Shown in pieces: positions 22,518-25,004 of a stretch of 40,637 nucleotides of DNA; position 1 is the stretch's first letter; the number at the start of each line of letters is the position of its first letter. The notes under the pieces are model-generated. The model was not told the DNA's origin, did not search any database, and saw only the letters and a program-made list of their open reading frames with translations. Origin of the DNA: Escherichia phage BUCT823; the sequence record PQ729991.1. The stretch is one strand, 5' to 3'. Position numbers and translations under genes: made by a program.

Positions 22518-22624
22518 TCTTTAATCCTTTGGTTAAGAGGTTACGGGTTAAGGTTAATGCGCCAGACGGGAACCACCCGCTTTTCGTGTGCGACACTAGG
22601 CGCAAAATTATTCTATCACATTAC

Positions 22625-22653
22625 TTGCACACCCCAATATAATAGTATACTAT
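22625..22653 (+). promoter_or_regulatory. sigma70-like promoter TTGCAC-N17-TACTAT driving the plus-strand cassette; palindromic core may also fire leftward (candidate -10 TATATT, reverse complement of 22636-22641)
   Basis: hexamers read directly; same 30-nt element as 1817-1845 and 31186-31214. Confidence 0.6.
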
Positions 22654-22694
22654 TCACTTACACCAACGATGTTATCCCAAACAGGAGCTACACC

Positions 22695-22886
22695 ATGACG
22701 GGTATTACTATGTTCTTCTTAATCATTATCGTTTTAGTTTATTTTATTCCATTTCTCGTGGCGCATATGCGCGACCATAAAGCGAAATTAGCGATATTCA
22801 TGGCTAATCTGTTTCTTGGATGGGTTCTGCTGCCGTGGGTATTTATTTTAATCTGGGCTTGCAACTCGAATGTCAAAGAGAAGTGA
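22695..22886 (+). CDS. small two-TM membrane protein resembling the superinfection-immunity (Imm-like) family, 63 aa
   Basis: AGGAG RBS 8 nt upstream; motif NLFLGWVLLPWVFILIWAC resembles the Imm family from memory. Confidence 0.55.
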   Translation: MTGITMFFLIIIVLVYFIPFLVAHMRDHKAKLAIFMANLFLGWVLLPWVFILIWACNSNVKEK

Positions 22887-22924
22887 GCTAGTATAGGACA
22901 AATCCTAAACACGAGGAAGTAAGC

Positions 22925-24079
22925 ATGGCCAAGAAGAAAATAACCGACGAACAGTTGCAGGAAGAATTGAACGCCGGTATGAAGAATGTAGATATCGCCC
23001 GTAAATACGGCATCTCAGACCGCGTAATTCGTATCCGTAAAGCGAAGCTGGCTAAGAAAGGCGTGGGCCACGGGCGCGACGTTAGCCACCTTGTGCCAGA
23101 CGGCTACAAGATTAAAGGAACGTCGTCACTTGTGGACGAGTTCGGCAACACTAAGTTGCAATGGGTTAAGACTGACACCGATGCTGAACGTCAGGTCGAG
23201 TTGATGAAAGCCGTTGTGGACGAGATGAAAAAAGATTTACCTAAGTATAAGCCTGTCACTTTGCTCAAAAATGGCACAGATGACGACTTATTAAATCTCT
23301 ACACAATAACGGACCATCACATTGGAATGCTGGCGTGCCAAGAAGAAGGCGGAGATGATTACGACACCACAATCGCGGAATCTCTCGCAGTTGACTGGTT
23401 CAACAGTGCGGTTTGTATGAGTCCACAGAGTGGTGAATGTATCATTAACTTCTTAGGGGACCAAATGCACTACGACGGCATGAAGGCAATGACCCCTATG
23501 AGCGGTCATATTCTTTCAGCGGATAGTCGCCTGTTTAAAATGATACGCACGGCCATTAAGGTTATCAAGCTGGCTGTCTCGCTGTGCCTGCGAAAACACA
23601 AGAAGGTTAAACTTCTTATCTGTGAAGGTAACCACGACCTTAGTTCTTCTCTGTGGCTCCGGGAGATGTTCTACGAGGTATACACAAATGAGCCCCGCGT
23701 CGAGGTTAACCGGGAGGTGTCGCCGTATTATGCGTACAAGTTCGGGGATTGTATGATTTCAGCACATCACGGGCATTGTTCTAACTTTACTAAGGTAGAG
23801 CAGGCCATAATCGGTAAGTATCGGGAGATGTACGGGCGGTGTAAGTTCACATATGTCCATACGGGCCACCTCCACCACAGGGCGGTTAAAGAGACTAATC
23901 TGCTAATTGTTGAGCAACACCAGACATTAGCGGCTAAAGACGAGTATTCTAGTAAAGGCGGTTATTATTCGGGTAGAAGCGCAAATGTGATTACATACCA
24001 TAAACGTTACGGGGAGGTGTCCCGCATAAGTATACCTGTTGAAATGCTGCGAGATATAAACCCAAAATCAACATACTAA
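22925..24079 (+). CDS. N-terminal HTH domain fused to calcineurin-like metallophosphoesterase domain (384 aa); substrate unknown
   Basis: HTH-like DIARKYGISDRVIRIRKAKL; ordered metallophosphoesterase motifs TDHH, GDQMHYD, GNHD, HHGH, GHLHH; GAGGAAG RBS. Confidence 0.6.
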   Translation: MAKKKITDEQLQEELNAGMKNVDIARKYGISDRVIRIRKAKLAKKGVGHGRDVSHLVPDGYKIKGTSSLVDEFGNTKLQWVKTDTDAERQVELMKAVVDEMKKDLPKYKPVTLLKNGTDDDLLNLYTITDHHIGMLACQEEGGDDYDTTIAESLAVDWFNSAVCMSPQSGECIINFLGDQMHYDGMKAMTPMSGHILSADSRLFKMIRTAIKVIKLAVSLCLRKHKKVKLLICEGNHDLSSSLWLREMFYEVYTNEPRVEVNREVSPYYAYKFGDCMISAHHGHCSNFTKVEQAIIGKYREMYGRCKFTYVHTGHLHHRAVKETNLLIVEQHQTLAAKDEYSSKGGYYSGRSANVITYHKRYGEVSRISIPVEMLRDINPKSTY

Positions 24080-24094
24080 AATGTAGGTGAAAGT

Positions 24095-24595
24095 ATGGAT
24101 TGGAGTGAGGTTTTTAGCTACAAAAACGGCGTCCTATACTGGAAAGTCAAATCATGTCGCCGTAACGATGTGAATATAGGTGATGTGGCCGGGAGTTTGT
24201 GTAAAAACGGCTATTGGTACGTCATGTTTGGTAACCGTAAGTTTAAAAGGTCGAGGGTGGTGTACGAGATGTTCTCAGGTAAGATTCCAAAAGGATTTGT
24301 AATAGACCACACTAACCATGATACCTGTGACGACAGAATTGAAAACCTGTCATGCAAATCCAGAAGGGACAACATGGTTAACGTGAAAAGGCGCAAAGAT
24401 AATACCTCTGGAGTTACTGGTGTGGCGCGGAAAGGAAAAACTAAGTGGAGAGCTTATGCCGTTGTCAACGGTAAGCAGATTAGTAAAACATTTGACAGAA
24501 TAGAGGACGCTTTCGCTGAAAGAATTTACATGTCTGCGGCTAATAGGTTTCACATAAATCATGGACTGACAACATTCAACAACGGTTATAAATAG
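24095..24595 (+). CDS. HNH homing endonuclease with AP2-like domain (166 aa), paralog of 12564-13049
   Basis: IDHTNH...D..RI.NL motif; AGGTGA RBS. Confidence 0.75.
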   Translation: MDWSEVFSYKNGVLYWKVKSCRRNDVNIGDVAGSLCKNGYWYVMFGNRKFKRSRVVYEMFSGKIPKGFVIDHTNHDTCDDRIENLSCKSRRDNMVNVKRRKDNTSGVTGVARKGKTKWRAYAVVNGKQISKTFDRIEDAFAERIYMSAANRFHINHGLTTFNNGYK

Positions 24596-24604
24596 GGCGT
24601 AGAG

Positions 24605-24835
24605 ATGACTTCAAAATACAACCGCACAATGACAAACACTCACGGCAGCACCATGACGGTAGACGTTTATGACGTATTGCGCGCCTTCGACATCCGCGAC
24701 CCGGCGTTACAGCACGCATTGAAGAAGCTATTGTGTATGGGCCTTCGCGGACACAAGGACACCGGAACAGACTTAGCGGAAGCAATTGAAAGCCTGGAGA
24801 AGTTACGGGAGTATAGAAGCAATATCGACGAATAA
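24605..24835 (+). CDS. hypothetical protein (76 aa)
   Basis: ORF track; tightly spaced after the HNH gene. Confidence 0.5.
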   Translation: MTSKYNRTMTNTHGSTMTVDVYDVLRAFDIRDPALQHALKKLLCMGLRGHKDTGTDLAEAIESLEKLREYRSNIDE

Positions 24836-24849
24836 CTACGAGGTATTTT

Positions 24850-24972
24850 ATGAAACTCATTATTAACTTCTTTAAAGCCTTAACAGGTAACGATTTTGAG
24901 ATTGACGGAGGTTGGCTAGTGTATGACCCTTCTTTTGATACTTGGTTGTGGCATAAAGAGAAACCTCGATGA
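24850..24972 (+). CDS. hypothetical small protein (40 aa)
   Basis: ATG at 24850 with GAGGT RBS; ends 2 nt before the terminator. Confidence 0.35.
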   Translation: MKLIINFFKALTGNDFEIDGGWLVYDPSFDTWLWHKEKPR

Positions 24973-24973
24973 G

Positions 24974-25004
24974 AAAAAGGCCCCGAAAGGGGCCTTAGTT
25001 TTAT
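24974..25004. terminator. bidirectional rho-independent terminator
   Basis: GGCCCC-GAAA-GGGGCC hairpin between an A-run and TTAGTTTTA; near-identical to 13185-13215. Confidence 0.75.

Follow-up and report, generated by a model that had tools for sequence, protein, structure and literature searches.

Small genes that encode envelope proteins, carry their own expression signals and lie among the tail genes are known from several phages, among them llp of T5 and cor of T1, phi80 and N15, and the protein family occupying the place varies between related phages. The products of these genes block the outer-membrane receptor of the phage itself. In T4, according to its record, the Imm protein alters the membrane, and superinfecting DNA is thereby held back in the periplasm. 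Among phage-encoded metallophosphoesterases, Gp48 of mycobacteriophage A10ZJ24 is produced early, has phosphodiesterase activity, damages the host DNA and counters defence, and it is non-essential on one host (PMC12287305). Here, we compare with these systems a cassette of five genes from Escherichia phage BUCT823 (sequence record PQ729991.1), the whole analysed stretch of 40,637 nucleotides being called the window. The cassette encodes an Imm-like membrane protein, a metallophosphoesterase with a helix-turn-helix (HTH) domain, an HNH endonuclease and two small proteins of 76 and 40 amino acids (p76 and p40), and it is read against the late genes between those for the tail tube and the tail assembly chaperone. 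With a probability of about 0.6, we consider this tube–chaperone junction a lineage-wide cargo slot of the subfamily Guernseyvirinae and the cassette dispensable accessory equipment rather than one integrated system.

The window represents a Kagunavirus-like Escherichia coli siphophage of the Guernseyvirinae. A megablast search with its first 25 kb gave matches within this subfamily only, the closest relative being Escherichia phage SZH-1 of the genus Kagunavirus (72% coverage, 92.8% identity). We found the same junction to be occupied in hundreds of published Jerseyvirus and Kagunavirus genomes in GenBank, with contents that overlap only in part. The slot of Salmonella phage Ent1 (gp24–gp20) holds Imm, a "recombination endonuclease subunit", an HNH protein, a 76-aa protein, a DNA-binding protein of Rha/Ant type and annotated terminators, and that of HSE2 holds Imm, the phosphoesterase, a different HNH protein and the 76-aa protein. 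In phiEc3, Imm and the phosphoesterase are followed by an "acid phosphatase" and by proteins of 76 and 40 aa; in XY1, the same two genes precede a chimeric open reading frame (ORF), a phosphatase, a kinase and a 58-aa protein; and SZH-1 has a 108-aa protein, the phosphoesterase and proteins of 76 and 58 aa. Searches of phage records with tblastn returned 2,009 records for the phosphoesterase, 773 for p76 and 365 for Imm. Among Salmonella phages, 373 records contained the phosphoesterase, 371 contained p76 and 359 the tube protein, which is about the same number for each. In the papers found on these phages, the cassette genes are annotated or listed and not studied.

We surveyed 26 complete intervals from the chaperone to the tube gene, consisting of IMG/VR contigs (loci L066–L116) and the window. 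The sample is independent of the cargo because the intervals were located through the conserved int-alpA-type RNA motif at the chaperone border. We observed 13–14 architectures among the 26 slots. The phosphoesterase was present in all but one of them (25/26), and the first slot gene, which always encodes an envelope protein, was Imm in 19 and a member of phrog_14165 in 5. Downstream of the phosphoesterase, there was nothing, an HNH gene (5 of the 26 slots, from at least two lineages), or a HAD_PNKP phosphatase followed by a phrog_139 protein resembling a deoxynucleoside monophosphate (dNMP) kinase (8 slots). While p76 was found in 17/26 slots and the phosphatase–kinase pair in 8/26, the two never co-occurred (0/26). 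As phiEc3 in GenBank has the phosphatase together with p76 and no kinase, we take p76 and the kinase to share one slot position. The last position was occupied by p40, p58 or the Rha/Ant protein, or was empty.

The smallest slots contain a single gene. In contig L106, the whole slot is 457 bp long and consists of a gene for an 84-aa single-pass membrane protein and a terminator. Two further Guernseyvirinae, Klebsiella phage VLCpiS11a and Serratia phage Otaku, have one small opposite-strand gene at the junction, encoding a YebO-like membrane protein in the former and a phrog_14165 protein with a signal peptide in the latter, and no Imm, phosphoesterase or p76 was found anywhere in the complete VLCpiS11a genome. 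Vibrio phage 242E40-1 and Pseudomonas phage PMBT14, with tube proteins 31–35% identical to that of the window, lack the island; in both, the chaperone gene directly follows the tube gene. The variable content, the single-gene slots, the absence of Imm, phosphoesterase and p76 from VLCpiS11a and the absence of the island from the distant phages together indicate that the junction is a cargo slot and its cargo dispensable for the lineage, and the 2.3-kb island of the window is probably dispensable.

These comparisons bear directly on an initial annotation made from the sequence of the window. It had described five plus-strand genes between the major tail and the chaperone genes, and we found all of the ORFs at their places, flanked by minus-strand genes with matches to Phage_tube_2 on one side and to Phage_TAC_4 and Phage_TAC_18 on the other (Table 1). 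Its reading of the layout as that of a moron or accessory locus agrees with the conserved promoter, the terminator, the low G+C content, the non-structural products and the cargo that varies among relatives; the comparison with related genomes that it had proposed indeed revealed a junction of variable content, lacking the island in distant relatives. The further suggestion of an undescribed system does not hold, as the same genes are annotated at the same junction in hundreds of GenBank genomes. Nor is there support for the five genes forming a single functional unit: the HNH gene comes and goes, p40 is found in four other records and the phosphoesterase family occurs elsewhere in other contexts. 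The cassette had been drawn as beginning at 22557, a position that merely marks the beginning of a long spurious ORF spanning the promoter.

Table 1. Features at the tube–chaperone junction of the window, from left to right
Feature	Position	Strand	Basis or remark
Tail assembly chaperone ORFs	22101-22517 and 21736-22095	-	Phage_TAC_4 and Phage_TAC_18
int-alpA-type RNA motif (Rfam RF02996)	22542-22606	-	cmscan, over the full model
RNA outer stem	22603-22599/22563-22559	-
RNA hairpin 1	22596-22594/22588-22586	-
RNA hairpin 2	22580-22576/22570-22566	-
Putative extended -10, TGATAGAAT	22618-22610	-	by eye
Alternative promoter ATCACA-N17-TATAAT	22615-22643	+	called by scan, 10/12 consensus positions; overlaps the next
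Candidate cassette promoter TTGCAC-N17-TACTAT	22625-22653	+	read from sequence; predicted start near 22660
Imm, 63 aa	22695-22886	+	ORF list
HTH-metallophosphoesterase, 384 aa	22925-24079	+	ORF list
Predicted tri-helical HTH, residues 8-47	22946-23065	+	AlphaFold2 model
Predicted phosphoesterase core, residues 119-380	23279-24064	+	AlphaFold2 model; beta-hairpin and helix linker between HTH and core
Mosaic block, phosphoesterase catalytic domain and HNH	23150-24602	+	Jerseyvirus-like identity
HNH homing endonuclease, 166 aa	24095-24595	+	ORF list
p76, 76 aa	24605-24835	+	ORF list
p40, 40 aa	24850-24972	+	ORF list
Bidirectional intrinsic terminator	24977-24996	both	scan; 8-bp stem, 6 G-C pairs, T runs on each strand
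Tail tube gene	25001-26173	-	Pfam Phage_tube_2, 1e-36

In the genome plan of the window, a replication block occupies the plus strand at approximately 2.7–13 kb, and the genes for tail, head, packaging and lysis form a long minus-strand block. The cassette differs from its surroundings in composition, its G+C content being 44.6% vs 51.8% and 53.1% in the flanks, and each of its five ORFs is preceded by a Shine-Dalgarno-like sequence, as read from the sequence. According to the cargo-slot reading, a short operon opposed in direction to the late genes would lie between the divergent promoter region and the bidirectional terminator, and recombination would exchange its content.

The sigma-70-like promoter sequence that the initial annotation had called strong is present and its motif, in the form TTGCA(C/T)-N17-TA(C/T)TAT, is kept in both Kagunavirus and Jerseyvirus despite a differing spacer. 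We regard this conservation across the two genera as support for the site. The adjective is an overstatement, since the site matches the consensus at only 8/12 positions, and the promoter scanner did not call it. The scanner instead called the overlapping alternative, which is not conserved between the two genera, and it found 8 promoter-like sites in the region in comparison with 5.9 expected by chance. The bidirectional terminator, also predicted initially, was called by the scan on both strands, and the cassette shares it with the tail tube gene. Ent1 has this element in its annotation, and the minimal slot of L106 has kept it.

The first gene is, by homology, a counterpart of T4 imm that encodes a predicted inner-membrane protein of 63 aa. 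It matches Pfam Imm_superinfect (PF14373) over profile positions 1–42 of 42 (E value 9.5e-14; 51.5 bits, cut-off 27.9), a model on which T4 Imm itself scores 58.2 bits, and phrog_1039 (1.6e-23). The pairwise alignment with T4 Imm shows 28% identity over 54 aa (E value 1e-11), and the hydropathy profile has two hydrophobic segments, with windows above 1.6 starting at residues 1–9 and 31–40 of 63. From the family match, the hydrophobic segments and the alignment, we infer a role in superinfection exclusion, which is well founded and the best founded of the functions proposed for the cassette: in the inner membrane of the infected cell, Imm would block the entry of DNA from later-arriving phages. 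The cassette had been proposed as a possible superinfection-exclusion or anti-defence module; the former part can be upheld for this one gene owing to its homology to T4 Imm, while an anti-defence role of the cassette can only be inferred.

The second gene encodes an intact dimetal phosphoesterase with a fold like that of Mre11, SbcD and MJ0936, fused to an N-terminal HTH. The motifs of the superfamily, DxH, GDxxH/D, GNH(D/E), H and GHxH, are all present (D130 H132; G178 D179 H182; G235 N236 H237; H282 G283 H284; G314 H315 H317) and invariant in an alignment of 18 sequences. The protein matches phrog_704, a family named "DNA repair exonuclease" (1e-150), a PF12850 hit is precomputed for two clusters of its homologues, and the AlphaFold2 model gives the 384-aa protein the predicted phosphoesterase fold. 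NCBIfam and PADLOC returned nothing usable for it, and searches of PDB sequences with the single sequence and with a profile of 18 sequences gave only a marginal match to the HTH of FixJ. The family is large and uniform, with 4,225 cluster representatives at 50% identity, nearly all full length and of 370–420 aa.

Outside the Guernseyvirinae, the phosphoesterase gene points in the same direction as the genes around it. One group of environmental phage contigs has a clear NinG/Rap gene on one side of it and a weak NinB-like match on the other; in Drexlerviridae, it is found downstream of helicase and Dam methylase genes and upstream of the lysis genes; and in Dhillonvirus, it is downstream of the lysis genes. 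In Webervirus, XY1 and contig L012, the genes after it include those for the HAD_PNKP phosphatase and the phrog_139 kinase. A jackhmmer search of 49 loci found no homologues of Imm, p76 or p40 adjoining the phosphoesterase outside the Guernseyvirinae. The neighbours point to a chemistry of DNA or nucleotide ends, be it recombination, salvage or end healing. The HTH may tether the enzyme to DNA, and its substrate may be DNA ends or host DNA, on which it would act as a nuclease or phosphodiesterase that depends on Mn2+. It may also feed recombination or nucleotide salvage together with p76, the corresponding partners in sister phages being the PNKP-type HAD phosphatase and the dNMP-kinase-like protein.

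The third gene is, on its profile matches, a free-standing HNH homing endonuclease and as such a selfish element (Pfam HNH_3, 6e-16, 58.2 bits vs a cut-off of 24.8; phrog_99, 1e-49; the PADLOC "homing endonuclease" model, 2.8e-6). Its DNA is approximately 97% identical to 156 phage records, 151 of them from Salmonella phages, but a gene coverage of 80% or more is reached in only 114 of these records. The sliding identity to the Salmonella Jerseyvirus Ent1 is 95–97% from approximately 23150 to 24600 and 58–84% on either side, and homology to two Kagunaviruses, phiEc3 and HSE2, is lost at 23214 and regained at 24603–24605. Consistent with this, the first ~100 residues of the phosphoesterase are of Kagunavirus type and its catalytic domain is of Jerseyvirus type. 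These breaks in identity and homology indicate that 1.45 kb of the window are a Jerseyvirus tract, on the right edge of which the HNH gene lies, and the block appears, from the sequence comparison, to be a recent cross-genus conversion tract.

We also identified traces of the loss of the element. Jerseyviruses without the HNH gene have a 45-nt mini-ORF made of its first 24 and last 21 nt (contigs L007, ~6170–6225, and L013, ~3780–3835), a remnant of a deletion between ACAAAAACGG and ACAACAACGG, which are 10-nt direct repeats. A different deletion in L010 has left ~75 nt of the 3' end. In XY1 (L001 3596–4159), residues 1–61 of the HNH protein are fused via GAGATGTTC microhomology to residues 248–376 of a Kagunavirus-type phosphoesterase; this ORF is annotated as a "calcineurin-like phosphoesterase", and we rejected it as a second enzyme, the chimera being a recombination scar. 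The mosaic block, the remnants and the XY1 scar together suggest the cycle of a homing endonuclease, with invasion and co-conversion of the flanking allele followed by decay. In such a cycle, the HNH endonuclease would cut the Kagunavirus-type phosphoesterase allele in genomes without the HNH gene, and repair would copy the HNH gene with the adjacent, resistant Jerseyvirus-type allele and so create the block seen in the window. A second HNH gene, at 12564–13049 on the plus strand (161 aa; phrog_99, 3e-65), ends the plus-strand replication block, and its product is 33% identical to that of the cassette.

The fourth gene product, p76, is a widespread small phage protein of unknown function (phrog_2452, 2.4e-36) that is predicted to form a beta-hairpin and three helices in an AlphaFold2 model with a predicted local distance difference test (pLDDT) score of 88.5. 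Foldseek found this fold in many phage proteins, some of them fused to larger proteins named ligase or phosphodiesterase, and against BFVD it gave weaker matches to DUF3310, SaV-like and "nucleotide kinase" proteins (E values 5e-3 to 5e-2, TM scores 0.6–0.7). PF11753 did not match p76 or nine of its homologues at E values up to 5, and hhalign of p76 against DUF3310 was not significant, with a probability of 0.15 for one DUF3310 protein and 0.18 for an alignment of 26 DUF3310 sequences. Membership in DUF3310 is rejected by these sequence-profile tests and a resemblance in fold alone remains. We also rejected p76 as a truncated C-terminus of the "RFC/kinase" protein of XY1, to which it has no similarity. 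In phage Rtp (L063 1444–2524), the p76 homologue rtp5 lies between rtp4, which has a PNKP phosphatase domain only, and a 30-aa gene whose annotation likens it to T4 Stp, and Rtp is thus a second context tying p76-like proteins to polynucleotide kinase/phosphatase genes. The fifth ORF, p40, has no family match in Pfam or PHROG, occurs in only four other phage records (97.5% identity) and is preceded, at a distance of 7 nt, by a GAGG motif. It is a rare orphan and sporadic cargo, its coding status is unproven, and it may or may not be a gene.

Several of our results weigh against the cargo-slot reading or against the roles that it gives to the genes. The phosphoesterase and p76 are near-universal in two genera and may matter more than the word accessory implies. 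The activities of all the cassette products are predictions. The model of the phosphoesterase is only moderately confident (pLDDT 71.5), the protein has no Pfam match at E values up to 0.1, the Metallophos model included, and the fold searches singled out no single subfamily. There is no Rad50/SbcC ATPase gene in the cassette or among the neighbouring genes, and no capping domain was recognised; with no such partner nearby, the enzyme is not a canonical Mre11 or SbcD. The cutting of the Kagunavirus-type gene by the HNH endonuclease is suggested by the tract boundaries, and the link of p76 to nucleotide kinases is one of modelled fold similarity, with the profile comparison failing. In the only transcriptome of a related phage, the Imm gene belongs to the last-peaking class together with the DNA polymerase and methylases, and the structural genes peak earlier (PMC12645636). 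This timing neither confirms nor excludes an early, sigma-70-dependent expression of the cassette, and we give it little weight because the sampling was coarse.

The left border of the slot contains a structured RNA that was missed in the initial annotation. Directly upstream of the chaperone gene, cmscan matched the int-alpA model over its full length with 31.6 bits (E value 6e-4), below the gathering threshold of 35.8, and the orthologous regions of phiEc3 and XY1 scored 36.6 bits, which is above the threshold, and 34.2 bits. The intergenic region 22518–22694 is more conserved between the genera than the adjacent coding sequence. The core of the RNA is invariant in ~40 Kagunavirus contigs, and the linker to the start codon of the chaperone gene varies. 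Among 13 distinct variants, 98.8% of the cells were paired and three pairs had changed on both sides; the covariation score was reached by none of 500 shuffles, and slid controls fell to 34–56%. One position of the outer stem is C–G, U–G or U–A, and in hairpin 1 G–C/U–A has changed to C–G/G–C. The compensatory base changes lie between Kagunavirus and Jerseyvirus, and the G–U pairs are valid on the minus strand only. As minimum free energy folding of the whole 177-nt intergenic region was no better than that of shuffled sequences (z 0.84), the support for the RNA comes from the covariance model and the covariation. We rejected a tRNA or a repeat as the identity of the region: there are no tRNAs in the window and the motif is present in a single copy. 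L106 retains the motif in its minimal slot; VLCpiS11a and Otaku lack it.

A putative extended -10 element, TGATAGAAT, would place the start of transcription at approximately G22603, with which the outer stem begins. Three lineages have a -10-like hexamer 6–7 nt upstream of the stem (TAGAAT, TATTCT and TAAAAT), its position being kept in Jerseyvirus and L106, and the promoter scanner made no call at the TGATAGAAT element. If the element is right, the cassette promoter would stand back to back with a promoter of the chaperone, tape-measure and distal tail genes, and the transcript of the latter genes would begin with the RNA as its 5' leader. The leader region 22518–22558 of the minus strand contains four (U/G)UAACC repeats, AUUAACC UUAACC CGUAACC UCUUAACC, in the linker that is variable in Kagunaviruses. 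Another int-alpA copy, close to the Rfam consensus, is found at 547–604 of a 15-kb viral contig of high G+C content (L076); on one side it has a repressor-like gene (phrog_2328) and on the other a 307-aa ORF followed by a tape-measure-like ORF of 611 aa. This context suggests that int-alpA may precede tail genes in an unrelated phage, too.

The recurrent company of the phosphoesterase allows a different emphasis. Together with p76, or with the HAD phosphatase and the kinase, it could form a counter-defence module that, like T4 Pnk or bacterial Pnkp, heals the ends (2',3'-cyclic phosphate, 3'-phosphate or 5'-OH) which defence nucleases create in phage DNA or host tRNA. Bacterial Pnkp joins a kinase to a calcineurin-type phosphoesterase, which fits with the phosphoesterase being found recurrently beside a PNKP-type HAD phosphatase and a P-loop kinase, and the 30-aa neighbour of the Rtp homologue of p76 is annotated like Stp, the activator of the PrrC anticodon nuclease. 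However, neither the cassette nor the annotated genome of SZH-1, the closest relative, shows a ligase, the window has neither the phosphatase nor the kinase, and the N-terminal HTH suggests binding of double-stranded DNA over repair of RNA. Moreover, Kagunaviruses of the BASEL collection are reported to be highly sensitive to restriction-modification and variably so to Old. We consider end healing unlikely.

The positional alternation invites a broader proposal, which we likewise find unlikely: the HTH-phosphoesterase and p76 might be a module interchangeable with one of phosphoesterase, HAD phosphatase and dNMP-kinase-like protein, accompanied by an RNA regulatory leader for the tail genes. 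Such a module would scavenge host DNA for nucleotides or heal nuclease-damaged ends and thereby evade host defence, with p76 as a minimal, non-P-loop stand-in for the kinase. The int-alpA-type leader would set the dosage of the tail genes from a promoter region shared with the cassette.

Two other explanations appear improbable, and to a similar degree. According to one, Imm and the phosphoesterase form a two-layer exclusion system in which Imm blocks entry and the DNA-binding nuclease degrades foreign DNA that comes in or is unmodified. In 19/26 slots, the two genes stand side by side and are co-transcribed, the envelope protein in the first position is a constant, and the DNA methyltransferases of SZH-1 could in principle mark self. 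Nevertheless, most of the ~2,000 phage genomes with a member of the phosphoesterase family have no Imm and place the gene in other contexts, Imm is swapped for a different protein in 5/26 slots that retain the phosphoesterase, and no determinant of self and non-self was identified. According to the other, the cassette is no moron and instead a core replication and recombination operon embedded in the tail module. The near-constancy of the phosphoesterase among the surveyed slots (25/26), the similar counts of phosphoesterase, p76 and tube protein in Salmonella phage records (373, 371 and 359) and the proximity of the family to NinG/Rap and replication genes in other phages agree with this. The complete genome of VLCpiS11a, a member of the Guernseyvirinae, nevertheless does without the phosphoesterase, as do the slots of L106 and Otaku, and the low G+C content, the putative promoter and the terminator of the cassette and the high turnover of the neighbouring cargo speak against a core operon. 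That the 384-aa protein is a lambda-type serine/threonine protein phosphatase, or chiefly regulates the transcription of the divergent promoters through its HTH, is very improbable: several GenBank records name it serine/threonine phosphatase or transcriptional regulator, weak matches link the HTH to domains of FixJ/LuxR type and to a PHROG named "late transcriptional activator", and the gene adjoins the divergent promoter region, but the PPP-family phosphatases are not its closest structural relatives.

With the cargo-slot reading preferred, the cassette is a mosaic instance of a well-populated slot that contains one selfish element and two common, uncharacterised phage proteins. The weight of this is modest: what was supposed to be an undescribed system becomes a defined cargo slot, the parts of which can be graded by how well they are understood. 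The T4-type Imm protein and the HNH homing endonuclease are understood by homology, and the HTH-metallophosphoesterase (~2,000 phage genomes) and its 76-aa partner (~770) are common yet uncharacterised. Kagunaviruses serve in phage therapy work and as a synthetic-biology chassis, for which the probable dispensability of the 2.3-kb island is useful; it is likewise useful that the island encodes a superinfection-immunity protein and a mobile endonuclease able to move alleles between Salmonella and E. coli phages. A modest interest remains in the function of the HTH-phosphoesterase with p76, or with the phosphatase and kinase, and in the role of the RNA ahead of the distal tail genes, and the leads are the alternation of p76 with the phosphatase–kinase pair at one position and the structured RNA heading the distal tail operon. 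Elsewhere in the window, a second small opposite-strand island lies within the minus-strand head module (31340–31684, plus strand) and encodes a 114-aa protein of phrog_13472, a family of unknown function. It coincides with a local dip in G+C content (0.444 at 31001–31500), and in SZH-1, too, a plus-strand island stands at a similar position within the head module, the likeness being one of position.

Compared with the described systems, the RNA shares with int-alpA (RF02996) the three-way architecture and the conserved linkers CUAG, CGAAAA and CUG. The Rfam consensus has a U run after the outer stem, whereas the copy in the window has none, and the latter stands upstream of a tail chaperone gene in a lytic phage and not near integrase or alpA genes; the paper describing int-alpA does not discuss the motif in its main text. 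The phosphoesterase resembles Mre11/SbcD and the phosphodiesterases of MJ0936/YfcE type at most in its working, membership in these families not being established, and its N-terminal module of HTH and beta-hairpin is foreign to both. Gp48 of A10ZJ24 and the protein of the window are both phage-encoded metallophosphoesterases with the five motifs. In Gp48, however, the first motif is at residue 10, which leaves no N-terminal HTH, and we regard it as an analogue rather than a demonstrated relative.

The HNH gene resembles those of the Seg and Mob proteins of T4, of HNH enzymes of HNH_3/AP2 type and of other cases of "intronless homing", with which it shares an HNH_3 domain, a site between conserved genes, a donor-like conversion tract and a cycle of invasion and decay. 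In comparison with known free-standing homing endonucleases, its tract is peculiar in crossing a genus boundary, from a Salmonella Jerseyvirus to an E. coli Kagunavirus. The Imm protein is, like that of T4, a small, predicted inner-membrane protein with two hydrophobic segments that matches the same Pfam model over its full length. The two differ in size (63 vs 83 aa), are 28% identical, and are encoded within the tail module of a siphophage here and next to DNA metabolism genes in the T-even phage. By its description, the slot as a whole is like the morons llp and cor: a small gene for an envelope protein with putative expression signals of its own stands among the tail genes, and the family occupying the place varies between related phages. 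Llp and Cor act on a receptor in the outer membrane, whereas Imm-type proteins act at the inner membrane, and the slot of the Guernseyvirinae, unlike those morons, additionally carries enzymes.

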